From: Escherichia coli
GTDB taxonomy: Bacteria > Pseudomonadota > Gammaproteobacteria > Enterobacterales > Enterobacteriaceae
Direction: 5' to 3' (one strand)
DNA: 64,000 nt
Assembly: GCF_002854065.1 (NCBI RefSeq)
Contig: NZ_CP024147.1
The translations under genes and the position numbers were made by a program. Each line of letters opens with the position of its first letter. Position 1 is the stretch's first letter. Shown piece by piece: positions 1-44,172 of the stretch. The notes below the pieces were generated by a model, which ran no database searches, was not told where the DNA came from, and saw nothing but the letters and a program-made list of their open reading frames with translations.

Positions 1-72
1 CGCGGCGTCCGGTCCGATATGGCGTTCAATAAAAGCGCCGCTGTTTTCAAGCTGGCTTAACGTCTGTGTCAT
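1..72 (-). CDS. gcvP: glycine dehydrogenase (decarboxylating) GcvP, first 24 codons only; gene continues beyond window start
   Basis: Minus-strand translation from ATG at 70-72 reads [24 protein letters not shown]; position downstream of gcvH fits gcvTHP operon. Confidence 0.85.
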
Positions 73-190
73 GAGCGATGGTTCCTGAAACGTGCAGTGA
101 ATTGTGAACCTCTCTCCTTGCGAAGAGAGTGAGGGTGAGGCATAAATTTTCCTCACCCTGATCCTCTCCCGCAGAAGAGGAATAAAGCCG

Positions 191-580
191 TTACTCGTCT
201 TCTAACAATGCTTCGTATGCGGTCGCATCCAGCAGTGATTCCAGTTCGCTTTCATCGCTGGCTTTGATTTTAAAGATCCAGCCACCTGCATACGGTTCGC
301 TGTTCACCAGTTCCGGGGAATCGCTCAGTGCGTCGTTTACCGCCACGATTTCACCGCTTACTGGCGCATAAATGTCTGACGCCGCTTTTACTGATTCGGC
401 AACCGCGCAGTCATCGCCCGCGCTAACCGTTGCGCCTACTTCCGGCAGGTCAACAAACACCATATCGCCTAACAGCTCCTGAGCGTGTTCGGTGATGCCA
501 ACGGTATAAGTGCCGTCGGCTTCTTTACGCAGCCATTCGTGTTCTTTGCTGTATTTCAGTTCTGCTGGTACGTTGCTCAT
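191..580 (-). CDS. gcvH: glycine cleavage system H protein (lipoyl carrier)
   Basis: ORF 191..583; product [17 protein letters not shown]... 129 aa from second Met; recognised GcvH. Confidence 0.95.
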
Positions 581-603
581 CAATCAATCTCCAAAAAAGT
601 AAA

Positions 604-1698
604 TCACGCGACGGCTTTGCCGTTACGCACAAAAACAGGTTTCGTCACTTTAACCGGCATTTCACGGTTGCGAATTTGCACAATCGCTGTTTCACCAATA
701 CCTTCCGGCACGCGCGCCAGCGCAATGCTGTAACCCAGCGTCGGGGAGAAAGTCCCGCTGGTGATAATGCCTTCATGCTGGTTGCCCTGCGCATCGGTAA
801 AACGTACCGGCAGTTCATTACGCAGCACGCCTTTTTCGGTCATCACCAGACCAACCAGTTTTTCTGTGCCATGTTCACGCTGCGCTTCCAGAGCTTCACG
901 ACCGATAAAGTCACGATCTGCCGGTTCCCAGGCGATGGTCCAGCCCATGTTGGCGGCTAAAGGAGAGATGGTTTCGTCCATCTCCTGACTATACAAATTC
1001 ATGCCTGCTTCCAGACGCAGCGTGTCACGCGCGCCCAGGCCGCATGGCTTAACGCCCGCTTCCACCAGCGCGCGCCAGAAATCCGCCGCTTTTTCATTGG
1101 GCAGCGCAATTTCATAGCCCGCTTCACCGGTATAACCAGTGGTGGCAATAAACAGATCCCCCGCCTGCACGCCAAAGAACGGTTTCATCCCTTCCACCGC
1201 CTGACGCTGGGCGTCATTAAACAGTGTGGCAGCTTTTGCCTGCGCATTCGGCCCTTGTACGGCGATCATGGAAAGGTCATCACGAACGGTAATTTCGATG
1301 CCGAAAGGTTCAGCGTGTTGGGTAATCCAGGAGAGGTCTTTTTCGCGGGTGGCGGAGTTAACAACGAGGCGGAAGAAATCTTCAGTAAAGTAGTAGACGA
1401 TGAGATCATCTATCACACCGCCAGAGGCATTCAACATCCCCGAGTAAAGGGCTTTGCCGCTTTTGGTGAGCTTCGCCACATCGTTCGCCAGCAGATAACG
1501 CAGAAACTCCCGGGTGCGGCTGCCGCGGAGATCGACGATGGTCATATGCGACACATCAAACATTCCGGCATCGGTACGTACCGCATGATGTTCGTCGATT
1601 TGCGAACCGTAATGCAGCGGCATCATCCAGCCGTGGAAATCCACCATGCGAGCGCCGCAAAGCGTGTGTTGTTCGTACAAAGGAGTCTGTTGTGCCAT
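604..1698 (-). CDS. gcvT: glycine cleavage system T protein (aminomethyltransferase)
   Basis: 364-aa [27 protein letters not shown]...; recognised GcvT; upstream of gcvH. Confidence 0.95.
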
Positions 1699-2145
1699 CT
1701 TGTCCTCATTGAATAAGCGGGGCTGACAACTTTTTCATGGTGAAATTATCACCACAAAACCCAGCATCGGAGCCACTCCCGGTCCCCAACGCAATCGTTC
1801 TCTTTTGCCTGAACTTACCACCGAAACAGACTGTTAACCATAAGGTAAAATTGATCATCACATTAGCTTATGGTTAAAAAATGCAAAAATCGCGACAGAA
1901 TAAAAAACCAAAAAACACACCAGTTTCTATACAAAGATGATGTGATGAGAAAGTCAATTTGAATAAGACAATATTAAGAGCTAAAAAAATGTCAAAAAAC
2001 ACTAAATCAAAAAATCATGGCATTAGAAAATATAATGCGAAAACGGAGGTGAAATTAGTTTATTTCAAATGAGGAAAATCTCCCGGCGAAAAAACCGGGA
2101 GATGAAAGTGTGATGCGTATCAAATAAACAGCAGAAGAGAAATTT

Positions 2146-3348
2146 TTAACGCAGCCATTCAGGCAAATCGTTTAATCCCATTGCCTGACGGATAAGTTGT
2201 GGCTTAACGCCAGGAAGCGTGTCGGCCAGTTTCAAACCAATATCACGCAGCAGTTTTTTCGCCGGATTGGTACCGGAAAACAGATCGCGGAATCCCTGCA
2301 TACCAGCCAGCATCAGCGCCGCGCTGTGCTTGCGGCTACGTTCATAGCGGCGCAGGTAAATGTACTGCCCGATGTCTTTACCCTGACGATGCAACCGTTT
2401 CAGTTCAGCAATCAGCTCTGCGGCGTCCATAAAGCCGAGATTAACGCCCTGCCCCGCCAGTGGGTGAATGGTATGCGCGGCGTCGCCCACCAGCGCCAGA
2501 CGATGTGCGGCAAACTGGCGCGCATAACGCCCCGTCAGCGGGAACACCTGACGCTCGCTCTCAACCTTGCATAAGCCCAGGCGATTATCAAAAGCGATAT
2601 TTAACGCGCGATTAAATTCGTCTTCCCCTGCCTGCTGCATCCGCTGCGCTTCCTCTGGCGACAGCGACCAGACAATCGAGCAAAGATGCGGATCGCTAAG
2701 CGGCAAAAAGGCCAGAATGCCTTCGCCGTGGAAAACCTGCCGCGCCACCGCATCATGCGGTTCTTCCGTGCGTATGGTCGCTACCAGCGCGTGATGCTGA
2801 TAATCCCAGAAAGTCAGTGGAATATCGGCTTTGTTGCGCAACCAGGAATTAGCGCCGTCCGCGCCAATCACCAGACGCGCCGTTAACATACTGCCATCTT
2901 TCAGCGTCAGGAAGGTTTCGTTTTCTCCCCAGGCGACCTGCTGTAATTCTGCGGGGGCCAACAGAGTGATATCTGACGCCTGCTGCGCTTTGTTCCACAG
3001 CGCGTAGTGAATCACTGAGTTTTCAACGATATGCCCAAGATGGCTATAGCCCATGCTTTGATCGTCAAACGAAATGTGACCAAAACTGTCTTTGTCCCAC
3101 ACTTCCATGCCGTGATAGCAACTGGCCCTACGAGAGAGAATGTCCTGCCAGACGCCAAGACGGGTGAGTAATTTTTCGCTGGCGGCATTGATAGCCGAAA
3201 CGCGCAGTTGTGGTGGTGCATCCGCCGCCAGAGGTTCCGGTACGCGCTGCTCCAGTATGGCAACGCGTAAGCCGCTCCCCTGTAAGCCGCAGGCAACCGC
3301 CAGCCCCACCATGCCGCCGCCAACAATGGCTACATCAACACTTTGCAT
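2146..3348 (-). CDS. ubiI: FAD-dependent 2-octaprenylphenol hydroxylase UbiI (VisC)
   Basis: 400-aa ORF with N-terminal FAD motif VAIVGGGMVGLA; UbiH-paralog; conserved position. Confidence 0.9.
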   Translation of the reverse strand: MQSVDVAIVGGGMVGLAVACGLQGSGLRVAILEQRVPEPLAADAPPQLRVSAINAASEKLLTRLGVWQDILSRRASCYHGMEVWDKDSFGHISFDDQSMGYSHLGHIVENSVIHYALWNKAQQASDITLLAPAELQQVAWGENETFLTLKDGSMLTARLVIGADGANSWLRNKADIPLTFWDYQHHALVATIRTEEPHDAVARQVFHGEGILAFLPLSDPHLCSIVWSLSPEEAQRMQQAGEDEFNRALNIAFDNRLGLCKVESERQVFPLTGRYARQFAAHRLALVGDAAHTIHPLAGQGVNLGFMDAAELIAELKRLHRQGKDIGQYIYLRRYERSRKHSAALMLAGMQGFRDLFSGTNPAKKLLRDIGLKLADTLPGVKPQLIRQAMGLNDLPEWLR

Positions 3349-3370
3349 TGTTTATTCCTTAAAACCGCCT

Positions 3371-4549
3371 TCAACGCGCCACCCAACCGAGGGTGCGCTG
3401 CGCCAGCACATCGCGTGCCGGGGTGAATAATTCCATCGTCATCAGCCCGATGTTGCGCCCGACAACCAGTGGCGTCCAACGGTTGGCAAAAAGATGTACA
3501 AGGCTGTCCGTGACGCCAATGGTTGCTTCGCGATCGCTCTGTCGACGCTGCTGATAACGACACAATACGCCGTAATCACCCATGTCTTCTCCGCGCTCCT
3601 GCGCCTGAGTCAGGGTTTCCGCAAGGCTCATCACATCACGCATACCGAGATTAAATCCTTGCCCAGCGATGGGGTGCAGAGTTTGCGCCGCATTGCCCAC
3701 CAGCACGGTACGATGGGTAATAGGTTTAGCGGCGCGGGTTAACGCCAGCGGATAAGCACTGCGTTTACCGGCGTGGGTAATTTGCCCCAGTCGCCAGCCA
3801 AAGGCAGACTGGAGTTCACGGCAAAACTTCTCGTCGCTCCACGACAGCACCTCTTCGCGCCGTTCCAGTGGATGACACCAGACCAGCGAACAGCGTCCGT
3901 CAGACATCGGCAACATCGCCAGCGGGCCATGTTGCGTAAAGCGTTCAAACGCGCGGCCTTCGTGCGCAACAGAAGTCGCAACGTTGGCAATCACTGCCAG
4001 TTGTTCGTAAGGCTCCTGCTGCCAGTCAACGCCGCACACAGTGGCTAACGCTGAATGGGTGCCATCAGCGGCTACCAGCACGCGGCCCGTCAGCGTCTCG
4101 CCACACTCCAGCGTCACTTCAACATGACTCTGAGTACGGGCAACGTTAGCCACGCGATCCGGGCAATGCAGCGTTACGCCAGGTGCTTTGCGCAGCAATG
4201 CAAACAGTCGTTGCCCGACATTGTGCAATTCGACAACCTGCCCCAGCGCCGCCAGTTGGTAATCTTCTGCGGCGAGGGTGACGAATCCGGCATGACCACG
4301 ATCGCTGACTTGCACGGTAGTGATGGCGGTTGCGCAATCAGCCAGAGATTGCCAGACGCCGATGCGCGCCAGTTGCTGACAGGTCCCCGCCGCTAGAGCA
4401 ATAGCTCGTCCATCAAAGCCCGGATGAGCATGTGACTCTGGCGCGGTCGCTTCAATCAAATGTACCGGCAGCGCTCCGTGACTTAACCGGGAAATAGCCA
4501 GCGCCAGCGTCGCGCCCGCCATGCCGCCACCGACGATGATTACGCTCAT
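3371..4549 (-). CDS. ubiH: 2-octaprenyl-6-methoxyphenol hydroxylase UbiH
   Basis: 392-aa ORF MSVIIVGGGMAGATLALA...; FAD monooxygenase; overlaps pepP stop by 4 nt. Confidence 0.92.
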   Translation of the reverse strand: MSVIIVGGGMAGATLALAISRLSHGALPVHLIEATAPESHAHPGFDGRAIALAAGTCQQLARIGVWQSLADCATAITTVQVSDRGHAGFVTLAAEDYQLAALGQVVELHNVGQRLFALLRKAPGVTLHCPDRVANVARTQSHVEVTLECGETLTGRVLVAADGTHSALATVCGVDWQQEPYEQLAVIANVATSVAHEGRAFERFTQHGPLAMLPMSDGRCSLVWCHPLERREEVLSWSDEKFCRELQSAFGWRLGQITHAGKRSAYPLALTRAAKPITHRTVLVGNAAQTLHPIAGQGFNLGMRDVMSLAETLTQAQERGEDMGDYGVLCRYQQRRQSDREATIGVTDSLVHLFANRWTPLVVGRNIGLMTMELFTPARDVLAQRTLGWVAR

Positions 4550-5871
4550 TGCTTTCTCGCAGCTGCCATCAACGCTTCGATTTCTTCCGGCTTTTTCACC
4601 ACGCTGGCGGTGAGGTTTTCGTTACCGGTTTCGGTAATCACAATGTCGTCTTCAATACGAATGCCGATACCGCGATATTGTTCTGGCACTTCTGCATCCG
4701 GCGCAATATACAGCCCTGGCTCTACGGTCAGTACCATGCCCGGTTCCAGAATGCGCGAGCGATCCTGACCATAAACACCCACGTCATGGACATCCAGTCC
4801 TAACCAGTGGCTAAGGCCATGCATAAAGAAAGGACGATGGGCGTTCTGAGCGATCAGTTCATCAACATCACCTTTCAGGATGCCGAGTTTTACCAGGCCG
4901 CTAACCATGATGCGCACCACTTCACCGGTGACTTCCTGAATGGAAGTTCCCGGACGATACAGGCGCAGGCTGGTTTCGAGAGACTCCAGCACAATGTCGT
5001 AGATTTCACGCTGAGCCTGAGTGAATTTGCCGTTGACCGGGAAGGTGCGGGTAATATCGCCAGCGTAACCTTTGTATTCGCAACCCGCGTCAATCAACAC
5101 CAGATCGCCGTCGTGCAGTTCACACTCGTTTTCGGTGTAATGCAGAATGCAGCCGTTTTCACCGCTGCCGACAATGGTGTTATAGGAAGGATAGCGCGCG
5201 CCGTGGCGGTTAAATTCGTGGTGAATTTCGCCTTCCAGGTGGTACTCGAACATTCCCGGACGGCATTTTTCCATCGCCCGGGTATGCGCCAGGGCGGTGA
5301 TTTCACCCGCGCGGCGAAGTACGGCAATCTCTTCCGGCGATTTGAACAGGCGCATTTCATGAACAATGGGACGCCAGTCGATCATCGTTGCCGGCGCGGT
5401 GAGATTTTGCCGCGAACCTTTACGCAGTTTCTCAAGCGCGCTGTTCACGATTTCATCAGCATATGCATATTCGCCCTGGGCGTGGTAAACCACATCCAGA
5501 CCATTAAGTAGTTGATAAAGTTGCTGATTAATTTCGCTGAATGCCAGTGCGCGGTCAACGCCCAGTTTCTCTGGCGCGGCATCCTGACCTAAACGACGGC
5601 CAAACCAGATCTCCGCCGTCAGGTCGCGAACGCGGTTAAACAGAACGCTGTGGTTATGAGTGTCATCGCTTTTAATCAGCACCAGCACCGCTTCCGGTTC
5701 GTTAAAGCCGGTGAAGTACCAGAAGTCACTGTTCTGACGATAGGGGTATTCGCTGTCGGCGCTACGTGTTACTTCTGGTGCAGCAAAAATCAGCGCGGCG
5801 CTGCCGGGTTGCATTTGCTCCACCAGGGCCTGACGGCGACGCTGAAACTCTTGCCGGGATATCTCACTCAT
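4546..5871 (-). CDS. pepP: Xaa-Pro aminopeptidase (aminopeptidase P II)
   Basis: Track ORF 4546..6084 trimmed to internal Met (MSEISRQEFQRRRQAL...) giving 441 aa; M24 peptidase motifs. Confidence 0.92.
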   Translation of the reverse strand: MSEISRQEFQRRRQALVEQMQPGSAALIFAAPEVTRSADSEYPYRQNSDFWYFTGFNEPEAVLVLIKSDDTHNHSVLFNRVRDLTAEIWFGRRLGQDAAPEKLGVDRALAFSEINQQLYQLLNGLDVVYHAQGEYAYADEIVNSALEKLRKGSRQNLTAPATMIDWRPIVHEMRLFKSPEEIAVLRRAGEITALAHTRAMEKCRPGMFEYHLEGEIHHEFNRHGARYPSYNTIVGSGENGCILHYTENECELHDGDLVLIDAGCEYKGYAGDITRTFPVNGKFTQAQREIYDIVLESLETSLRLYRPGTSIQEVTGEVVRIMVSGLVKLGILKGDVDELIAQNAHRPFFMHGLSHWLGLDVHDVGVYGQDRSRILEPGMVLTVEPGLYIAPDAEVPEQYRGIGIRIEDDIVITETGNENLTASVVKKPEEIEALMAAARKQ

Positions 5872-8208: not shown

Positions 8209-9441
8209 TTAGTACAGCAGACGGGCGCGAATGGTACCCGGAATAGCTTTCATTGCCTGCAGCGCTTTTTCGGCAACGTCTTCGTCGGCTTCAATATCAA
8301 TAACCACATAACCCATCTGGGCGGAAGTTTGTAGATATTGCGCGGCGATGTTGACGCCCTGCTCGGCGAAGATTTTGTTCAGCGCAGTTAGCACGCCCGG
8401 ACGGTTTTCGTGGATGTGCATCAGACGACGCCCACCGTGCAGTGGCAGCGAGACTTCCGGGAAGTTCACCGCAGAGAGCGTTGAGCCATTGTCAGAATAC
8501 TTGATCAATTTACCCGCAACTTCCAGGCCAATATTCTCCTGCGCTTCCTGAGTCGAACCGCCAATGTGTGGCGTCAGAAGGACGTTGTCGAATTCACACA
8601 GCGGAGAGGTAAATGGATCGCTATTGGTCGCCGGTTCCGTCGGGAATACGTCGATTGCCGCCCCCGCCAGATGTTTGCTCGCCAGCGCATCACACAGCGC
8701 CGGAATATCCACCACAGTACCGCGCGAAGCATTAATCAGCAGCGAGCCGGGCTTCATTAGTGAAATTTCTTTCGCGCCCATCATATTTTTGGTGGACGGA
8801 TTCTCTGGTACATGCAGACTCACCACATCGCTCATATTCAGCAGGTCAGAAAGATGCTGTACCTGAGTGGCGTTGCCCAGCGGCAGTTTATTTTCAATAT
8901 CATAAAAGTAAACATACATTCCCAGCGATTCAGCCAGAATGCCCAATTGCGTACCAATATGACCGTAGCCGATGATACCCAGCTTTTTGCCGCGCGCTTC
9001 AAAAGACCCCGCCGCCAGTTTGTTCCACACGCCACGGTGCGCTTTAGCATTGGCTTCCGGCACGCCGCGCAATAGCAACAGCAGTTCGCCAATCACCAGC
9101 TCCGCAACAGAGCGCGTATTTGAGAACGGTGCGTTAAATACCGGGATCCCGCGCTTTGCCGCCGCATCCAGATCAACCTGGTTTGTTCCGATACAGAAAC
9201 AGCCAATAGCGACCAGCTTTTCTGCGGCGTTGATCACGTCTTCAGTCAGATGGGTACGGGATCGCAGGCCGATGAAGTGGGCATCGCGGATGGATTCTTT
9301 TAATTGTTCATCATCCAGCGCGCCTTTGTGAAATTCGATGTTGGTGTAACCAGCTGCACGAAGGCTTTCCAGCGCCTTTTGGTGCACTCCTTCTACCAGC
9401 AGAAACTTAATCTTGTCTTTCTCCAGCGATACCTTTGCCAT
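8209..9441 (-). CDS. serA: D-3-phosphoglycerate dehydrogenase
   Basis: 410-aa ORF MAKVSLEKDKIKFLLVEGVHQKALESL...; NAD-binding GIIGYGHIGTQ motif. Confidence 0.95.
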   Translation of the reverse strand: MAKVSLEKDKIKFLLVEGVHQKALESLRAAGYTNIEFHKGALDDEQLKESIRDAHFIGLRSRTHLTEDVINAAEKLVAIGCFCIGTNQVDLDAAAKRGIPVFNAPFSNTRSVAELVIGELLLLLRGVPEANAKAHRGVWNKLAAGSFEARGKKLGIIGYGHIGTQLGILAESLGMYVYFYDIENKLPLGNATQVQHLSDLLNMSDVVSLHVPENPSTKNMMGAKEISLMKPGSLLINASRGTVVDIPALCDALASKHLAGAAIDVFPTEPATNSDPFTSPLCEFDNVLLTPHIGGSTQEAQENIGLEVAGKLIKYSDNGSTLSAVNFPEVSLPLHGGRRLMHIHENRPGVLTALNKIFAEQGVNIAAQYLQTSAQMGYVVIDIEADEDVAEKALQAMKAIPGTIRARLLY

Positions 9442-9696
9442 TTACCCAATCCTGTCTTTTGAAATGTTGTGTGCGGATTTGCGTCCGCCTTTCAACATAT
9501 CAAAAAATAATATTGCGGCAATATGAACGTTTGCGTCGCGATGTTGAGGAAATATCACGCAAAGGTAATTCTTGGATGAATATGCTGGTTTAGAGGATTT
9601 ATTTAGAGCAATCGACAATAGCCAGGTAAAAACGTGACACATGTCACCAAATTTAATGAAGAGAATTTTTTTAACGGGGGAGGTTCCCCCGTCAGA

Positions 9697-10356
9697 TCAT
9701 TTCACAATGGTTTTGACACCGTCAGGTGTGCCAATCAGCGCAACGTCCGCGCCACGGTTAGCAAACAAGCCAACAGTCACCACGCCAGGAATCGCATTTA
9801 TGGCGTTTTCCATCGCTATCGGGTCAAGGATTTCCATGCCGTGGACGTCGAGGATCACGTTGCCATTATCGGTCACCACGCTCTGACGGTATTCCGGACG
9901 ACCGCCCAGTTTCACCAGCTGGCGCGCCACTGCACTACGTGCCATCGGGATAACTTCTACTGGCAGCGGGAATTTACCCAGAATATCAACCTGCTTGGAA
10001 GCGTCTGCAATACAGATAAATTTTTCTGCAACCGAAGCAATGATTTTTTCACGGGTCAGCGCCGCGCCGCCGCCTTTGATCATTTGCATGTGGCCGTTGA
10101 TTTCATCTGCGCCATCAACGTAGATGCCAAGGCTGTCGACTTCGTTGAGATCAAAAACGTGAATGCCGAGGCTTTTCAGTTTTTCAGTGGAAGCATCTGA
10201 ACTGGAAACGGCCCCTTCAATCTGGCCTTTCATTGTACCGAGCGCGTCAATAAAGTGTGCGGCGGTGGAACCTGTACCTACACCAACAATGGTGCCGGGC
10301 TGAACATACTGAAGTGCCGCCCATCCTACTGCTTTTTTCAATTCATCCTGCGTCAT
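9697..10356 (-). CDS. rpiA: ribose-5-phosphate isomerase A
   Basis: Track ORF 9697..10428 trimmed to [31 protein letters not shown]... (219 aa). Confidence 0.93.
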
Positions 10357-33499: not shown

Positions 33500-33570
33500 A
33501 AATTATCCTTATTTTATTTTTAGGGTGCCGTCCGGCGGTAAAAATAAAATACTCGGGTAATGACTCCAAC

Positions 33571-34074
33571 TTATTGATAGTGTTTTATGTTCAGATAATG
33601 CCCGATGACTTTGTCATGCAGCTCCACCGATTTTGAGAACGACAGCGACTTCCGTCCCAGCCGTGCCAGGTGCTGCCTCAGATTCAGGTTATGCCGCTCA
33701 ATTCGCTGCGTATATCGCTTGCTGATTACGTGCAGCTTTCCCTTCAGGCGGGATTCATACAGCGGCCAGCCATCCGTCATCCATATCACCACGTCAAAGG
33801 GTGACAGCAGGCTCATAAGACGCCCCAGCGTCGCCATAGTGCGTTCACCGAATACGTGCGCAACAACCGTCTTCCGGAGACTGTCATACGCGTAAAACAG
33901 CCAGCGCTGGCGCGATTTAGCCCCGACATAGCCCCACTGTTCGTCCATTTCCGCGCAGACGATGACGTCACTGCCCGGCTGTATGCGCGAGGTTACCGAC
34001 TGCGGCCTGAGTTTTTTAAGTGACGTAAAATCGTGTTGAGGCCAACGCCCATAATGCGGGCAGTTGCCCGGCAT
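33571..34074 (-). CDS. insB: IS1 InsB' frame (expressed as InsAB' by -1 frameshift)
   Basis: 167-aa ORF overlapping insA 3' end; IS1 transposase catalytic region. Confidence 0.9.
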
Positions 34075-34268
34075 CCAACGCCATTCATGGCCATATCAAT
34101 GATTTTCTGGTGCGTACCGGGTTGAGAAGCGGTGTAAGTGAACTGCAGTTGCCATGTTTTACGGCAGTGAGAGCAGAGATAGCGCTGATGTCCGGCGGTG
34201 CTTTTGCCGTTACGCACCACCCCGTCAGTAGCTGAACAGGAGGGACAGCTGATAGAAACAGAAGCCAC
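33993..34268 (-). CDS. insA: IS1 InsA (transposition inhibitor / N-terminal part of InsAB' transposase)
   Basis: 91-aa [46 protein letters not shown]... Confidence 0.95.
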
Positions 34269-34653
34269 TGGAGCACCTCAAAAACACCATCATACACTAA
34301 ATCAGTAAGTTGGCAGCATCACCAAATACTCGTGCGGTTTAATGAAAGCAATTGGGTACGCGAGAAGAAAAACCCCATAAACCAAAATAATAAAACCTTA
34401 AATAACAACAATATGAAATTGATATCTTTAAAGTCAACTTTGTGTTTGTTATGTTTATCACAAAATCAACATTTTGTTTGTTATTGTATTTGTGATGCAT
34501 ATCTCTATTTATTTATTGAATGTTCGAAAACATACTTTTCTAATGCAATGTTTTTTCGCTATACCCCTTTATAGAATCTGAATTCTCACCTGTCGGCTGT
34601 TTTCTCCTCATCTCATGTGACATATTCCCACACTTTACTCAAGGAAGATTGTC

Positions 34654-35781: not shown

Positions 35782-37773
35782 TTACAGCAGCGCTTTTGCT
35801 TTCGCAACAACGTTATCAACAGTGAAGCCGAACTCTTCAAACAGCAGCTCTGCCGGAGCAGATTCACCGAAGGTGGTCATACCGACGATAGCACCGTTCA
35901 GGCCAACATACTTGTACCAGTAGTCAGCAATACCCGCTTCTACCGCAACGCGTGCAGTAACCGCTTTCGGCAGTACGGATTCACGGTAAGCCGCATCCTG
36001 CTTGTCGAATGCATCGGTAGACGGCATGGAAACCACGCGCGCCTTCACGCCTTCGGCAGTCAGTTTTTCGTAGGCGGCAACAGCCAGTTCAACTTCCGAA
36101 CCGGTCGCGATGAAGATCAGTTCCGGCTGACCGGCACAGTCTTTCAGCACATAACCACCGCGCGCGATGTTTGCCAGCTGCTCTTCAGTACGCTCCTGCT
36201 GCGCCAGGTTCTGACGGGAGAGGATAAGCGCGGTCGGGCCGTCCTGACGCTCAACACCGTATTTCCATGCCACTGCAGATTCAACCTGGTCACATGGACG
36301 CCATGTAGACATGTTCGGGGTCACGCGCAGAGAAGCAACCTGCTCTACCGGCTGGTGAGTCGGGCCATCTTCGCCCAGACCGATGGAGTCGTGGGTGTAA
36401 ACCATCACCTGACGCTGTTTCATCAGCGCAGCCATACGTACGGCATTACGTGCGTATTCTACGAACATCAGGAAGGTGGAGGTGTACGGCAGGAAGCCAC
36501 CGTGCAGGGAGATACCGTTAGCAATCGCGGTCATACCGAACTCGCGAACACCGTAGTGGATGTAGTTACCCGCAGCATCTTCGTTGATTGCTTTAGAACC
36601 AGACCACAGGGTCAGGTTAGACGGTGCCAGGTCAGCGGAGCCGCCGAGGAATTCCGGCAACAGCGGACCGAACGCTTCGATAGCATTCTGCGACGCTTTA
36701 CGGCTGGCGATTTTCGCCGGATTAGCCTGCAGTTTAGCAATGAACTCTTTCGCTTTCGCGTCGAAGTCAGACGGCATTTCACCTTTCATACGACGGGTGA
36801 ATTCAGCCGCTTCCTGCGGGAAGGCTTTGGCGTAAGCCGCGAATTTCTCATTCCAGGCAGCTTCTTTCGCCTGGCCTGCTTCTTTCGCATCCCACTGCGC
36901 ATAGATTTCAGACGGGATTTCGAACGGTGCGTATTTCCAGCCCAGCTGTTCGCGGGTCAGAGCGATTTCTGCATCACCCAGCGGCGCACCGTGGGAGTCG
37001 TGAGTACCGGCTTTGTTCGGGGAACCGAAACCGATGATGGTTTTGCACATCAGCAGGGACGGTTTGTCAGTCACTGCGCGCGCTTCTTCTACTGCGCGTT
37101 TGATGGATGCTGCGTCATGACCGTCGATGTCGCGAATAACGTGCCAGCCGTAAGCTTCGAAACGCATTGCGGTGTCGTCGGTGAACCAGCCTTCAACGTG
37201 ACCATCAATAGAGATACCGTTGTCATCGTAGAACGCAATCAGTTTACCCAGCTTCAGCGTACCCGCCAGAGAGCAAACTTCGTGGGAGATGCCTTCCATC
37301 ATGCAGCCGTCGCCCATGAAGGCGTAGGTGTAGTGATCGACAATGTCGTGGCCCGGACGGTTAAACTGCGCCGCCAGCGTTTTTTCTGCAATCGCCATAC
37401 CTACTGCGTTGGCAATACCCTGCCCCAGCGGACCGGTGGTGGTTTCCACACCAGCGGTGTAACCCACTTCCGGGTGGCCCGGAGTTTTAGAGTGCAGCTG
37501 ACGGAAGTTTTTCAGTTCTTCCATCGGCAGATCGTAACCGGTGAGGTGCAGCAGGCTGTAGATCAGCATGGAGCCGTGGCCGTTGGACAGCACGAAGCGG
37601 TCACGGTCAGCCCAGGACGGATTCTGCGGGTTGTGTTTCAGGAAATCACGCCACAGGACTTCGGCAATGTCAGCCATACCCATAGGGGCACCCGGGTGAC
37701 CGGATTTGGCTTTCTGTACTGCGTCCATGCTCAGCGCACGAATAGCATTGGCAAGCTCTTTACGTGAGGACAT
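35782..37773 (-). CDS. tktA: transketolase 1
   Basis: Track ORF 35782..37803 trimmed to [41 protein letters not shown]... (663 aa). Confidence 0.95.
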
Positions 37774-38050
37774 TTTGACTCCAGATCGGATGATGAAGGG
37801 CACGCCCTTAACGACTTGACGACAGCGCGTTTTGGGCTACGCCGGAAAATTTGCCAACAATTTACCGCAAGCCGCGCGTCATGTACATGGAACATCCTTT
37901 TGCCGCTTCAGAAATCTCTGGATCATGCTCGCATGTTGCGCAATCTACTCGCCCGTCCGCTGCGCTTTTCCTTATACTGAGACTGAGCGTCGGTTCACCT
38001 GCAAACGGCGCATTTTTAGAATAATCCTGACCTTGTGCGGAAGAAAAAAC

Positions 38051-38809
38051 ATGAAAATTCGCGCCTTATTGGTAGCAATGAGCGTGGCAACGGTACTGAC
38101 TGGTTGCCAGAATATGGACTCCAACGGACTGCTCTCATCAGGAGCGGAAGCTTTTCAGGCTTACAGTTTGAGTGATGCTCAGGTGAAAACCCTGAGCGAT
38201 CAGGCATGTCAGGAGATGGACAGCAAGGCGACGATTGCGCCAGCCAATAGCGAATACGCTAAACGTCTGACAACCATTGCCAACGCGCTAGGCAACAATA
38301 TCAACGGTCAGCCAGTGAATTACAAAGTGTATATGGCGAAGGATGTGAACGCCTTTGCGATGGCTAACGGCTGTATCCGCGTCTATAGCGGGCTGATGGA
38401 TATGATGACGGATAACGAAGTCGAAGCGGTGATCGGTCACGAAATGGGGCACGTGGCGTTAGGCCATGTGAAGAAAGGGATGCAGGTGGCACTTGGTACA
38501 AATGCCGTGCGAGTCGCGGCGGCCTCTGCGGGCGGTATCGTCGGCAGTTTATCGCAATCACAGCTTGGTGATCTGGGCGAGAAATTAGTCAATTCGCAAT
38601 TCTCCCAGCGCCAGGAAGCAGAGGCGGATGATTACTCCTACGATTTACTGCGCCAACGCGGCATCAGTCCGGCAGGTCTTGCCACCAGCTTTGAAAAACT
38701 GGCAAAACTGGAAGAAGGTCGCCAAAGCTCAATGTTTGACGACCATCCAGCATCCGCCGAACGCGCCCAGCATATTCGCGATCGTATGAGCGCGGACGGG
38801 ATTAAGTAA
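38051..38809 (+). CDS. loiP: outer-membrane lipoprotein metalloprotease LoiP (YggG), M48 family
   Basis: Track ORF 37832..38809 trimmed to MKIRALLVAMSVATVLTGCQ (lipobox) ... HEMGHVALGH zinc motif; 252 aa. Confidence 0.92.
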   Translation: MKIRALLVAMSVATVLTGCQNMDSNGLLSSGAEAFQAYSLSDAQVKTLSDQACQEMDSKATIAPANSEYAKRLTTIANALGNNINGQPVNYKVYMAKDVNAFAMANGCIRVYSGLMDMMTDNEVEAVIGHEMGHVALGHVKKGMQVALGTNAVRVAAASAGGIVGSLSQSQLGDLGEKLVNSQFSQRQEAEADDYSYDLLRQRGISPAGLATSFEKLAKLEEGRQSSMFDDHPASAERAQHIRDRMSADGIK

Positions 38810-38820
38810 GGCATGGTGGT

Positions 38821-39120
38821 GCCAAACGTAGTTCAGATAAGGCATTTACGCCGCATCTGACATAAATGGCACATTCACTACCTCGTGCGCATTGCCGGAT
38901 GCGATGCTGGCGCATCTTATCCGGCCTACGGGTGCCAAACGTAGGTCAGATAAGGCGTTCACCCCGCATCTGACATGAATGGCACATTTGTTACCTTGTG
39001 CGCATTGCCGGATGCGATGCTGGCGCATCTTATCCGGCCTACGGGTGCCGAACGTAGGTCGGATAAGGCGTTCACGCTGCATCCGACATTAATGGCACGT
39101 TTTACCCGTGCGCATCGCAT
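38821..39120. repeat. BIME cluster: about 2.6 tandem copies of a ~113-bp REP-containing unit
   Basis: Unit gccaaacgtag..cagataaggc..ccgcatctgacat..gcgcattgccggatgcgatgctggcgcatcttatccggcctacgggt repeated from 38821, 38934 and 39046. Confidence 0.9.
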
Positions 39121-39127
39121 CTGGTGC

Positions 39128-40048
39128 TTACTCGCCCTTTTTCGCCGCCTGAATATACAGCATTTCCAGCGCCAGCGTTGCCGCTGCCAGAGCGGTGATT
39201 TCCGACTGATCGTATGCCGGAGCCACTTCCACTACGTCCATCCCAACGATGTTGAGATCTTTCAGGCCGCGTACCAGTTTAATAGCGCGATCGGAGGTCA
39301 GACCGCCAATTACCGGCGTACCGGTTCCCGGCGCAAATGCAGGATCCAGGCAGTCGATATCAAAGGTCAGGTAAACCGGCATATCACCCACAATTTGTTT
39401 CACCTGGGCGATAACGTCATCCACGCTGCGATCGTTCACCTGGCAGGCGTCCAGCACGGTAAAGCCGTTGTCTTTATCAAATTCGGTACGAATACCAATC
39501 TGCACGGAATGATTCGGATCGATCAGACCTTCTTTCGGCGCGGTATAGAACATGGTGCCGTGGTCAAATTCACAACCGTTCGCGTAGGTATCGGTGTGGG
39601 CGTCAAAGTGTACCAGCGCCATTTTGCCGAAATGCTTCGCATGAGCACGCAGCAGCGGCAGCGTAACAAAGTGGTCACCACCGAAGGAGAGCATACGCTT
39701 ACCGGCAGCCAGCAGCTTCTCGGCGTGTGCCTGCAGTTTTTCGCTCATCTCACGGGCATCGCCGAAGGCATATACCAGATCGCCGCAGTCCACCACGTTC
39801 AGACGCTCGCGCATGTCGAAATTCCACGGGAAGCGGTTGTGTTCCCAGGCCAGGTTAGTCGAAACCTGGCGAATCGCCGCCGGGCCATGACGACCACCGG
39901 CACGGCCAGAGGTGGCCATGTCGAACGGCACGCCGGTGATCACCCAGTCGGCATCGCTGTCATACGGCTGGAAGTTCATCGGCAGGCGTAAAAAACCAAA
40001 GGCGTTGGAAACCAGTGAGTTATCGTATTGATGACCTAAGGTGCTCAT
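39128..40048 (-). CDS. speB: agmatinase (agmatine ureohydrolase)
   Basis: 306-aa [63 protein letters not shown]...; arginase fold. Confidence 0.95.
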
Positions 40049-40071
40049 GGATGGACTCCTATTACAAAGTC

Positions 40072-40118
40072 GATATAAAAAAACCCTTCCGCGTCGTTAG
40101 GCCCGACGAGGAAGGGTT
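40072..40118 (-). terminator. rho-independent terminator 25 nt upstream of speB start
   Basis: Minus strand aacccttcctcgtcgggcctaacgacgcggaagggtt followed by T7. Confidence 0.6.
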
Positions 40119-40183
40119 GGATTTGCGAAACACAAGTTTGTGCTAATTATCGCCTTAAATGGGCGAGGCATCAAGCGAGGTTG

Positions 40184-40650
40184 CTATTTCCGACACGGTG
40201 GCGGCGCATAGCCATTGTTATCTGCCGGAAAGGCTTGTCCAGAGCACGGCGGCAGCGCGTTTTGCGCCTGGCCTTGTAATTCAAAGGCGGCAAAGCCGAT
40301 TACACCGGTATTACGCACATCGCCTTGCGCCGAATTGGCTGCGTAGGAATCAGCAACGTTGGCGAACTGAAAAGCCGCTTCGGTATGTTTATCTTTGCGG
40401 AATCCTTTAATCGCTAACGAATCTCCGGCATTCACAATATAGCCGTTGTTATTCAGCGAACCTTGCTTGCCGTTCAGCACATCCAGGCCATCAACCGTAG
40501 CAACGATCTCGTAGTTGGTGTTACGACTGTAATTACGAACATATAATTGATAATTCATTCCGACTCTGGCGTGGACAATATAGCGTGGTTCATTATTGGA
40601 TGAATCATAAACACGCGTAATAGGTAGAGAATTAAAATTACCATCGCGAA
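40184..40650 (-). pseudogene. 3' fragment of unknown gene, 5'-truncated by IS1 copy 2 (Asn/Tyr/Gly-rich, two C-terminal Cys)
   Basis: Minus-strand frame is open from IS1 boundary (40650) to stop at 40184, about 155 codons ending ...NALPPCSGQAFPADNNGYAPPPCRK; track shows only the part from the first Met (40184..40558); not recognisable as speA. Confidence 0.45.
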
Positions 40651-40665
40651 GGTAATGACTCCAAC

Positions 40666-41169
40666 TTATTGATAGTGTTTTATGTTCAGATAATGCCCGA
40701 TGACTTTGTCATGCAGCTCCACCGATTTTGAGAACGACAGCGACTTCCGTCCCAGCCGTGCCAGGTGCTGCCTCAGATTCAGGTTATGCCGCTCAATTCG
40801 CTGCGTATATCGCTTGCTGATTACGTGCAGCTTTCCCTTCAGGCGGGATTCATACAGCGGCCAGCCATCCGTCATCCATATCACCACGTCAAAGGGTGAC
40901 AGCAGGCTCATAAGACGCCCCAGCGTCGCCATAGTGCGTTCACCGAATACGTGCGCAACAACCGTCTTCCGGAGCCTGTCATACGCGTAAAACAGCCAGC
41001 GCTGGCGCGATTTAGCCCCGACGTATCCCCACTGTTCGTCCATTTCCGCGCAGACGATGACGTCACTGCCCGGCTGTATGCGCGAGGTTACCGACTGCGG
41101 CCTGAGTTTTTTAAATGGCGGAAAATCGTGTTGAGGCCAACGCCCATAATGCGGGCGGTTGCCCGGCAT
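40666..41169 (-). CDS. insB: IS1 InsB' frame
   Basis: 167-aa ORF; differs from copy 1 at several residues ([22 protein letters not shown]...). Confidence 0.9.
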
Positions 41170-41363
41170 CCAACGCCATTCATGGCCATATCAATGATTT
41201 TCTGGTGCGTACCGGGTTGAGAAGCGGTGTAAGTGAACTGCAGTTGCCATGTTTTACGGCAGTGAGAGCAGAGATAGCGCTGATGTCCGGCAGTGCTTTT
41301 GCCGTTACGCACCACCCCGTCAGTAGCTGAACAGGAGGGACAGCTGATAGAAACAGAAGCCAC
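41088..41363 (-). CDS. insA: IS1 InsA
   Basis: 91-aa ORF; one residue differs from copy 1 (NTIFRHL vs NTILRHL). Confidence 0.95.
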
Positions 41364-41418
41364 TGGAGCACCTCAAAAACACCATCATACACTAAATCAG
41401 TAAGTTGGCAGCATCACC

Positions 41419-42058
41419 CTCATGGGGTTATACATCAGCCGGGATTTCAAAAGCCTTCGGTGATGATAAATATCAACAGCAGTATTTATCACAGCGCAGC
41501 GGGTTTGCTATAGGTGAGGATGGTTTTGCATGGGGCCGCATGGACTATGATTCCGCGCTAATTGTCGATGCTACGGATTTGCCCGAAGATCAGTATTTCG
41601 AGGTGCGTAATCGTAATTCGGCACCAACGATTGTAAAAGGTGGTCAGAAAACAACGCTTTCTATGGAGCCGTATCGTAAGGTCGCACCAGAAGCTGAACA
41701 ACTCTACAGCAATAATATGGATGCTTATTACAATCTGAAAACGGAGTCTACTTCTACCTGGGCGAAACCAGGGCAAGTTTATAAAGTTAAACTTTCCGCA
41801 ACCCGGAATCTGACCGTCACCGGACGCCTTTATTTTGACGGTCAACCGTTGATTAACGCCAGGGTCGTTGGTGGGAATGCAATGGCAGATACTGATGGCT
41901 TATTTGTTGGTGATTTTACACTCCAGACAAATGAACAACTTAAATCTGTGAAAGTTAAACAAGACGGGCGTGATTTCATCTGTCCACTGCTGGATGAAAA
42001 TATCAAACTTGCGCAGGGTATTATGCAAATTCGTGAGGTTAATTGTGAAGTTCAATAA
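41419..42058 (+). pseudogene. C-terminal fragment of fimbrial outer-membrane usher, 5'-truncated by IS1 copy 2
   Basis: Frame open from IS1 boundary; C-terminus ...KVKQDGRDFICPLLDENIKLAQGIMQIREVNCEVQ parallels the two-Cys usher tail of FimD (...VQVKWGEEENAHCVANYQLPPESQQQLLTQLSAECR) as I recall it. Confidence 0.55.
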
Positions 42059-42062
42059 ATGG

Positions 42063-42755
42063 ATGGCTCTTTTTTTAGGATTGTTGGCTGGGTTTTCTAC
42101 CGTAGCGCAAGCTATTGAGGTGTTTCCTATTGTAAAAGAAATAAAGGAAGAAACGCCAAGAGATAATTATATTACCGTTAAGTCTATGTTTAAGCTGAAT
42201 GATAAAGTTGATGTTCCAGAACCAGACAAACAGCAATATGAATTCGTTACGCTTGATCTCTATCACATAAAAAACCCAGGCGATAAAAAAGAAAATATGG
42301 AAAAGGAATTGGGGACGGAAAACCCTGCGCTGGTATTTTCACCGACCAAACTGGTTATTCCATTCGGTGAAGAAAGGAAAATTCGCATCATGCCTATGCG
42401 TCCGGTTGATCATGAAACGGTATACAGGCTGCGTGTACGACCAAGTTATCCGGAACAGGCCCTTGAAAAAGGGAAGGTCCGTTTTGCTATTGGATATGAT
42501 GTTTTAATTCGTTATCTCCCGTCAGGTAAGCACACTCAGGGGATACAGATTAGCTGTGATAAAAACAACTGGCATTTGAAAGCAACCGGTAATGTAAGAA
42601 GTGAATTACGTAAATTGGTGATTGATGGCCGGATGCAGGAGGGGAATTTCAATGTTTATCCGGAAAACAGCAGAACTCTTAACGTGAATAAACGTCTTTC
42701 CTTCGAAATGGATGGAAAAACGCTGGTTTACGAAAATTGTCTGCTTAAGGAGTAA
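42063..42755 (+). CDS. putative periplasmic fimbrial chaperone (PapD-like)
   Basis: Track ORF 41970..42755 trimmed to MALFLGLLAGFSTVAQA signal peptide; about 230 aa; RYLP-type motif (FAIGYDVLIRYLP); follows usher fragment. Confidence 0.45.
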   Translation: MALFLGLLAGFSTVAQAIEVFPIVKEIKEETPRDNYITVKSMFKLNDKVDVPEPDKQQYEFVTLDLYHIKNPGDKKENMEKELGTENPALVFSPTKLVIPFGEERKIRIMPMRPVDHETVYRLRVRPSYPEQALEKGKVRFAIGYDVLIRYLPSGKHTQGIQISCDKNNWHLKATGNVRSELRKLVIDGRMQEGNFNVYPENSRTLNVNKRLSFEMDGKTLVYENCLLKE

Positions 42756-42758
42756 TTC

Positions 42759-43649
42759 ATGCGCTCATGGTTCTGTTTAATTGCACTGTTGTTGCCTGGC
42801 ATTGTATTTGCGAGTGGTGAGATGATTATTCAGCCTCAAAGTAAGGGGGCGGTTCACTTCCTTGCCCGTGGTCTTTCTTCTGGCGGCGACAATATTATCT
42901 CTGCTGCTTACAGCGCCGGGCGGCCTCTGTCTGTTTTATTTAGCCCGACAGGAAACGGACATTGTGAGGGCGATTTTTTGGCTGTGGATCATCTCCGGTT
43001 GTCTGTTCAGCAAGCAGGTGAAAATACTTCTTATACCTGTGGCGTTCCGGTAACGATCGAAAGTCCTTCGAAGGATGGGATCCTGCGCCTTCAGTTAACG
43101 AACTCGACGTCTGTTCAGGATTTCTCCTCATTGATGAGAACAGACGGGGGCCTGAGACAGCAAATTGGTAATTTGCAAATAACCCAGCAAGGTAATGAAA
43201 GTTTTATTGTCCCGATTTATCTGGATCTCACTATTTTGCAGAATCAGGTGGTTACGATAGCTGCTTCATTTGAAAAGCCATCTCTTCAACTTGGGCTGGT
43301 AGGCCCGGAACATGATGCTTCAGAGACTGTGGGTCTGCGCGTCAGCAAAACATTACAGGCAGGTGAGGAGGCGATGCTTTATCGCGTAACATTTGAATCT
43401 TCTCAACTGAAGGATAATAGGTTCCATTTACTATCCTCTGTTGATCATCAGTTTATTCCTTATCAAATCTATATATCTGGTGTCGAAGTTACCCCTTCTC
43501 AGCCTTATGTAAGTGAGCTGCCGCAGGGAAAGGCAACTTCTGAATTGCTTGATGTAAGATTCAATTTGTCTGGCCGAGCTGTTCGTGGCATGGCTGCCGG
43601 TTCGCGCTTACTTGATACGGTAACCGCAGTAGTAACCCCGGAAAGTTAA
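42759..43649 (+). CDS. putative fimbrial tip adhesin or minor subunit (secreted, 296 aa)
   Basis: Signal peptide MRSWFCLIALLLPGIVFA; two Cys in N-terminal half; C-terminal beta-strand-like TVTAVVTP; operon position. Confidence 0.45.
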   Translation: MRSWFCLIALLLPGIVFASGEMIIQPQSKGAVHFLARGLSSGGDNIISAAYSAGRPLSVLFSPTGNGHCEGDFLAVDHLRLSVQQAGENTSYTCGVPVTIESPSKDGILRLQLTNSTSVQDFSSLMRTDGGLRQQIGNLQITQQGNESFIVPIYLDLTILQNQVVTIAASFEKPSLQLGLVGPEHDASETVGLRVSKTLQAGEEAMLYRVTFESSQLKDNRFHLLSSVDHQFIPYQIYISGVEVTPSQPYVSELPQGKATSELLDVRFNLSGRAVRGMAAGSRLLDTVTAVVTPES

Positions 43650-43662
43650 ACTGGAGAATAAA

Positions 43663-44172
43663 ATGAAATTAACTTTTTTACCTGTTGTGCTGTCGGTAGC
43701 ATTTTGTAGTCAGGTTCAGGCTGTTGTACCGGTCAAAACATCTATTGATGTGCAGGCTGAAATCAGTACTGCGGTTAATATTTATGTTAATGGCCAGGAT
43801 GTCACCAATAAATCTATCAGTGTCAATCTGAAAGATGAAGGTGGCTATATGAAAGGCAGTACGCCACCTTTCCAGTTTGTTGGCAACGCCAGTTCTGTTG
43901 CCCTTTCGCTCCAGGCTCCGCCAGCGAATGGGTTGGTCGGCCCTGAAAATAAAGTTATGCCTTTACTGACATCCTGGTTCAATCCGGATGCGAATGCTGA
44001 AGTTTCGACAAGTTTTCCCTTTTCAAATATCAAGGTTTATCCAACGTTACAGGACGTACCTGATCCACAGAATGGTGTAAAAGTGGTATTTCGCTCGAAG
44101 GAGCGTAGCGAAACTTTCCCCTTGGGAACATATAGCGGGACTTATACCGTTATTGTAACGCCATCAGTTTAA
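43663..44172 (+). CDS. putative fimbrial subunit (secreted, 169 aa)
   Basis: Signal peptide MKLTFLPVVLSVAFCSQVQA; pilin-like size; C-terminal alternating hydrophobic strand GTYSGTYTVIVTPSV. Confidence 0.45.
   Translation: MKLTFLPVVLSVAFCSQVQAVVPVKTSIDVQAEISTAVNIYVNGQDVTNKSISVNLKDEGGYMKGSTPPFQFVGNASSVALSLQAPPANGLVGPENKVMPLLTSWFNPDANAEVSTSFPFSNIKVYPTLQDVPDPQNGVKVVFRSKERSETFPLGTYSGTYTVIVTPSV

Follow-up and report, generated by a model that had tools for sequence, protein, structure and literature searches.

In the 64,000-nt stretch of Escherichia coli DNA analysed here (the window), a truncated open reading frame lies between an IS1 element and speB, and the question is what this frame is, where it came from and why speA is not found beside it. 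The preliminary description counted about 155 open codons from the IS1 boundary to a stop 135 bp before speB, took the frame for a 5′-truncated gene standing in place of speA, considered it to be not arginine decarboxylase but secreted or outer-membrane-like in appearance, and called its origin unclear. The analyses described below make it very probable that the fragment is the IS1-truncated remnant of a native lipoprotein gene, that it was created together with an IS1-mediated inversion of ~35 kb, and that it has no function of its own.

Read on the minus strand, the frame at 40184-40650 has no stop between the IS1 boundary and the TAG at 40184-40186, and its translation, LRDGNFNS...GYAPPPCRK*, starts with LRDGNFNSLPITRVYDSS and ends with NNGYAPPPCRK*. 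Native sequence accounts for 467 nt: two bases of codon I89, 154 complete codons (R90-K243) and the stop codon. The Leu read as codon 155 is a hybrid that takes its first base from IS1. The frame runs on open for 19 codons into IS1 and, this extension included, no start codon was found in frame before the ATG at 40558, which corresponds to M120 of the full protein. The spacer between the stop of the fragment and speB, the ATG end of which lies at 40048, occupies 40049-40183 and is 135 nt long, so that translation and coordinates agree with the extent given in the preliminary description. A chance open reading frame was ruled out by the 100% identity of 602 nt (40049-40650) to an annotated gene region in, among others, strains XJ34 and CUWW06.

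The fragment was identified as the 3′ 467 nt (R90-K243) of a 732-nt gene for a protein of 243 aa, listed in RefSeq as ‘lipoprotein’ (WP_000758914.1; UniProt clusters A0A0D7C1F3 / A0A1Q4PKQ4), a full-length copy of which is located at 9136-9867 (-) of the comparison locus L001. A megablast search with 40049-40660 returned matches in 5425 of the 5426 complete E. coli genomes; coverage was >=80% in 3553 of the 5426 (~65%), several matches were 100% identical, and the annotation beneath the match reads ‘lipoprotein’ or ‘hypothetical protein’. The gene order in XJ34, O157:H7 TR01 and CUWW06 is tkt, loiP, speB, the 732-nt lipoprotein gene (WP_000758914.1 or WP_060616333.1), speA, yqgB, yqgG, yqgD and metK. 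The WP_000758914.1 gene has 100% nucleotide identity with the window copy over the retained 467 nt and the spacer, and the same position and orientation beside speB, whereas 265 nt at the 5′ end (M1-A88 plus one base of I89) are absent from the window copy, as expected from the 5′ truncation at IS1 noticed earlier; the 5′ half does not adjoin, and start codon, signal peptide and lipobox are missing. The core motifs of the family (YEIVATVDGLDV...GFRK...AYAANS...GVIG...AFPAD...YAPPP) all fall within R90-K243, and the position just upstream of speB on the same strand, with a spacer of ~135 nt and a terminator-like hairpin, is that of the family, while native sequence begins only inside codon 89 and the start, the signal peptide and LLAGC with Cys20 are missing. 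Judged by these features, the fragment is a piece of a family member and not a functional member. The identity and position of the parent gene are already annotated, and the fragment is neither a novel nor a foreign open reading frame. Its origin can thus be named: the parent is a lipoprotein gene that most E. coli carry natively beside speB (order speB-lipoprotein-speA) and that has orthologues in Klebsiella and Salmonella; the fragment has not replaced speA.

That the fragment looked foreign, and that speA was expected in its place, is explained by K-12, which lacks the lipoprotein gene. K-12 MG1655 and the window have identical sequence in speB, in the 77 nt immediately upstream and in the terminator-like hairpin, but in K-12 no lipoprotein gene lies between speB and speA, and speA itself ends with its stop 137 nt from speB. 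This spacing (135 nt in the window versus 137 nt in K-12), and thus position only, would favour reading the fragment as native speA 3′ sequence. That reading was discarded: in other strains a lipoprotein gene distinct from speA adjoins speB, with an intact speA beyond it, and the fragment matches this gene with 100% identity. Similarity to the K-12 spacer stops shortly after the conserved hairpin, 77 nt from the speB ATG on its upstream side. Furthermore, the parent protein has no Pfam match at E<=10, whereas SpeA has the domains Orn_Arg_deC_N, Arg_decarb_HB and Arg_decarbox_C, which are found in the intact speA adjoining orthologues of the lipoprotein gene; the earlier judgement that the fragment is not arginine decarboxylase was therefore right.

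Orthologues with 60-75% identity were found in Salmonella, Citrobacter, Klebsiella and Kluyvera. The order in Klebsiella is speA-lipoprotein-speB, and in Salmonella the gene directly follows speA. Because the orthologues hold this position in Klebsiella and Salmonella, the comparison of gene orders indicates that the lipoprotein gene is ancestral at the speB/speA locus and that its absence in K-12 is a loss. The K-12 spacer between speB and speA shares, in its distal 60 nt (L012 2876-2935), only scattered short motifs (ATTATC, CAAG) with window positions 40126-40183, and the loss in K-12 was therefore not a clean recent deletion. In Variovorax, a distant relative, the homologue lies inside a his operon, so the link of the gene to speA and speB is specific to enterics. 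The same data bear on the possibility that the fragment is foreign DNA, carried as transposon cargo of IS1 or belonging to the island beside pheV. The fragment abuts IS1, the gene is missing from K-12, and the DNA on the far side of IS1 is island DNA with a rare fimbrial operon present in 7 of 5426 genomes; however, the fragment is continuous with speB and the spacer at 99.98-100% identity, exactly as in strains without IS1 at this site, and the orthologous gene sits at the equivalent position in Klebsiella and directly after speA in Salmonella, which leaves a foreign origin with a nearly negligible probability.

The impression of a secreted or outer-membrane protein had been well founded, as the full-length product has a signal peptide and the lipobox LLAGC with Cys20, the N-terminus reading MKKWKVRSALVALIVLLAGC followed by SSN.... 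According to the Lol sorting rule, Ser at position +2 directs a lipoprotein to the outer membrane. The intact protein is accordingly predicted from its sequence to be an outer-membrane lipoprotein, with Cys20 of the lipobox LLAGC lipidated and Ser at +2. No Pfam match was obtained for the full-length E. coli protein (E<=10) or for 37 aligned family members, searches against NCBIfam gave only sub-threshold matches in the signal-peptide region, and the PDB sequence search gave only a signal-peptide match (E = 0.02). The family alignment has the strongly conserved core Y..L..RN.S...YE.VATVDGLDV..G..GS...GY......I.GFRK...E.AAF.F....AYAANS..GD..N.GVIG.A.FEL and the C-terminal tail AFPAD...YAPPP, and both are contained entirely in the part retained in the window. 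AlphaFold2 yielded a confident all-beta model (mean pLDDT 80.5, >90 for most of residues 50-210), for which no significant neighbour was detected among solved structures; the neighbours that Foldseek found in AFDB50 all bear the label ‘outer membrane lipoprotein’ and are uncharacterised; they come from Providencia, Proteus, Pseudomonas, Acinetobacter, Kingella, Moraxella, Ralstonia and others. The intact protein is predicted to have an all-beta domain and a conserved Pro-rich C-terminal tail, and C225 and C241, the conserved C-terminal cysteines of the enteric members, could form a disulfide. A profile search of 1.84 billion cluster representatives returned 4184 clusters at E<=1e-3 and 3232 at E<=1e-10, counted as clusters at 50% identity. 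The parent family is widespread in Proteobacteria, to which the members named above mainly belong, and has no Pfam model.

In the window, the 3′ 467 nt of the 732-nt gene (40184-40650, minus strand) lie within the 99.98% alignment to positions 1-4766 of the CUWW06 locus (L003). As IS1 removed the promoter, the start codon, the signal peptide, the lipobox cysteine Cys20 and the N-terminal strands, the fragment is a pseudogene. It may be transcribed passively by read-through from IS1, and a product started at M120 would have no export signal. It could be argued that the fragment is still expressed, by such read-through or from an internal promoter with M120 as the start, and has acquired a new cytoplasmic role: insA and insB are transcribed toward it, an in-frame ATG is present at 40558, promoter-like hexamers occur on the minus strand, and Y122-F211, the family's most conserved core, is kept. 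However, the fragment has lost signal peptide and lipobox as well as the beta strands at the N-terminus of the predicted domain (residues 34-91), and the repeated inactivation of the gene in other lineages points to dispensability and not to a gain of function, so that an expressed product with a new role is considered very unlikely.

Downstream of the pseudogene, speB (agmatinase; 39128-40048, minus strand) is an intact open reading frame of 306 aa, and the syntenic speB is annotated in XJ34, O157:H7 TR01 and CUWW06. Within the 135-nt spacer, a terminator-like element on the minus strand (40075-40118) is composed of a hairpin at 40082-40118 and a U7 tract at 40075-40081. The RNA fold of the hairpin has -24.4 kcal/mol and z = -4.1, with 0 of 200 shuffles as good, and the hairpin is conserved in K-12 and Klebsiella. 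A simple terminator scan did not call it, because the stem has an internal mismatch. It looks like a terminator of the upstream gene or an attenuator of speB. The interval from loiP to the speB 3′ end contains, at 38810-39120, three REP/BIME-like repeats in tandem, each of ~113 bp and ~89% identical to one another.

The IS1 element at the junction (IS1B-like, 40651-41418, minus strand) is 768 bp long, carries the pair insA (41088-41363, minus strand) and insB (40666-41169, minus strand), and is bounded by the terminal inverted repeats GGTAATGACTCC... on the left and ...GGCAGCATCACC on the right, as is characteristic of IS1. IRR (the left end) lies beside the lipoprotein fragment and IRL (the right end) beside a fragment of a fimbrial usher gene, and both insA and insB are transcribed toward the lipoprotein fragment and speB. 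The element is 100% identical to two IS1B copies beside the usher gene in CUWW06, which are located just upstream of that gene and 1.9-3 kb from the position corresponding to the breakpoint. Comparison of the 9-bp flanks, CATCGCGAA and CTCATGGGG, showed that they are unlike, and hence the 9-bp direct target-site duplication of a simple IS1 insertion is absent at the junction; a rearrangement therefore fits this element better than a simple insertion. A second IS1 in the window (33556-34323) is 98.96% identical to the CUWW06 IS1B copies and has a perfect 9-bp target duplication, AAATACTCG, and is therefore a simple insertion.

The nature of the rearrangement becomes apparent from the alignment to CUWW06. 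Window positions 35885-40650 match L003 1-4766 with 99.98% identity, and the match stops at nt 467 of the lipoprotein gene as counted from its stop; on the other side of IS1, window positions 41419-64000 match L003 39847-17266 in reverse, again with 99.98% identity. The DNA directly to the right of IS1 (41419-42058, plus strand) is, by the L003 alignment, the IS1-truncated 3′ 640 nt, encoding the C-terminal 213 aa, of a TcfC-like fimbrial usher gene. This gene is intact in CUWW06 (2541 nt, L003 39208-41748, the window match beginning at L003 39847), where it lies 35 kb from the lipoprotein gene in opposite orientation. The block at 41419-64000, which aligns in reverse to L003 and runs off the window end, contains the rest of the fimbrial operon, the T6SS remnants tssB, tssC and tssK, tRNA-Phe (49484-49559), yqgA, speC, nupG, mltC, mutY and further genes as far as hemW and rdgB. 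The absence of speA beside the fragment is thus due to the DNA right of IS1 being inverted relative to CUWW06, and not to replacement of a gene. We infer the inversion from this one junction and the collinearity with CUWW06; the reciprocal junction would be located beyond the window. Between the two breakpoints the inverted segment would measure 35,081 bp, which would place the reciprocal junction, with speA, metK and the missing 5′ portion of the lipoprotein gene, at about window coordinate 76,500 or ~12.5 kb past the window end. A second IS copy in the opposite orientation, joined to the complementary halves of both interrupted genes, would be expected there.

Adjacent deletions are a known activity of IS1, and the lack of speA in the window could accordingly be read as an IS1-caused deletion in which speA and its neighbours were lost from the genome. 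A deletion would preserve the orientation of the distal DNA, whereas this DNA is reversed, and it includes speC to rdgB, which lie between the two breakpoints in CUWW06. Moreover, the part of the segment outside the window holds metK, which is essential in E. coli. A deletion is for these reasons highly improbable. An assembly chimera, in which IS1 copies sit in both the lipoprotein and the usher gene and the intervening segment is not inverted, is somewhat less remote but still unlikely: IS1 is a 768-bp multi-copy repeat with two copies in the window, and the junction is absent from all other complete genomes searched (5426), but the contiguous 64-kb stretch crosses two IS1 copies, which suggests a repeat-resolving assembly, and the orientation of the junction IS1 matches the product of an inversion. 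Even if the junction were chimeric, IS1 would interrupt the lipoprotein gene at nt 265, and the identity of the fragment would be unchanged.

With regard to the age of the proposed inversion, the junction of speB, fragment, IS1 and usher gene was found in 0 of the 5426 complete E. coli genomes. Neither was a precursor with IS1 at the usher breakpoint detected in this set; in all seven carriers of the fimbrial island the usher gene is intact at this position. The fragment carries no extra mutations relative to its relatives, and these observations together point to a recent, strain-specific event. Two routes could have led to it: intramolecular replicative transposition by an IS1 whose IRL abutted the usher breakpoint and which attacked the lipoprotein gene, or homologous recombination between two inverted IS1 copies, which would give the same product. 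An extra step, either an adjacent deletion or a separate insertion, would be needed, as the nearest IS1 in CUWW06 is 1.9 kb off the usher breakpoint.

The fimbrial operon joined to the fragment by IS1 is itself uncommon. This Tcf-like operon (41419-44172), in the island beside tRNA-Phe (pheV), consists of a TcfC-type usher gene, truncated in the window, and three downstream genes with hypothetical products; it occurs in only 7 of the 5426 complete E. coli genomes. The adjoining part of the pheV island (44180-49450) contains decayed defence and secretion genes, namely a short IS4/ISSfl9-like remnant, tssB (frameshifted in CUWW06), tssC, tssK and partial genes for DotU and for Wadjet JetD, and represents a degraded T6SS cluster.

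The lipoprotein gene has been inactivated in other strains as well. In LY180 and DS26-1, alleles annotated in RefSeq as pseudogenes are interrupted by IS1 (LY180, L004 4768-5535; DS26-1, L006 4777-5544), and in strain U1 an IS1 in the same orientation, with a perfect 9-bp duplication, is inserted in the spacer between the lipoprotein gene and speA (L005 5080-5847). The insertions in the lipoprotein gene of the window, LY180 and DS26-1 are independent and no more than 25 bp apart, and the gene seems to be a hot spot for IS1. In addition, a frameshifted allele of 174 aa is represented by 448 member sequences, and Shigella dysenteriae carries fragments of the gene, which seems to be lost often. 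The fixed position between speA and speB in Escherichia and Klebsiella, and after speA in Salmonella, might reflect a functional link to the putrescine pathway or to the handling of polyamines in the envelope, with repeated loss being adaptive, although we regard this as improbable. If such a link were true, the losses by deletion in K-12, by IS1 insertions and by frameshift would be adaptive rather than neutral. A literature search, made partly with guessed accessions and locus tags, returned nothing on the speB/speA-linked lipoprotein gene.

In annotation terms, the appropriate label for the fragment is that of a pseudogene, derived from the lipoprotein gene next to speB and disrupted by IS1; it provides no evidence for the loss of speA. 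The junction probably marks a recent, strain-specific inversion of ~35 kb, by which speB was parted from speA and a rare Tcf-like usher gene was inactivated. Any wider point concerns the parent family only, which is widespread and uncharacterised and has neither a Pfam model nor a solved structural relative.

Compared with known systems, the window shares with LY180 and DS26-1 the interrupted gene and the orientation of IS1, and the sites in these strains lie 16 and 25 bp, respectively, from that in the window. In contrast to the window, both are simple insertions with perfect 9-bp duplications and with both gene halves and speA in place, whereas the flanks of the window IS1 mismatch and its far side is the inverted fimbrial usher gene. 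IS-mediated inversions in E. coli and Shigella arise via intramolecular replicative transposition or via recombination between inverted IS copies. While in the window one of the two junctions of such an inversion is visible, the arrangement resembles the known cases in that one IS joins distant loci in inverted order without a target duplication across the IS copy. The orientation of the element is likewise as predicted, with IRR at the lipoprotein gene and IRL at the usher gene, which we take to be the expected product of an inversion under the replicative (Shapiro) model.
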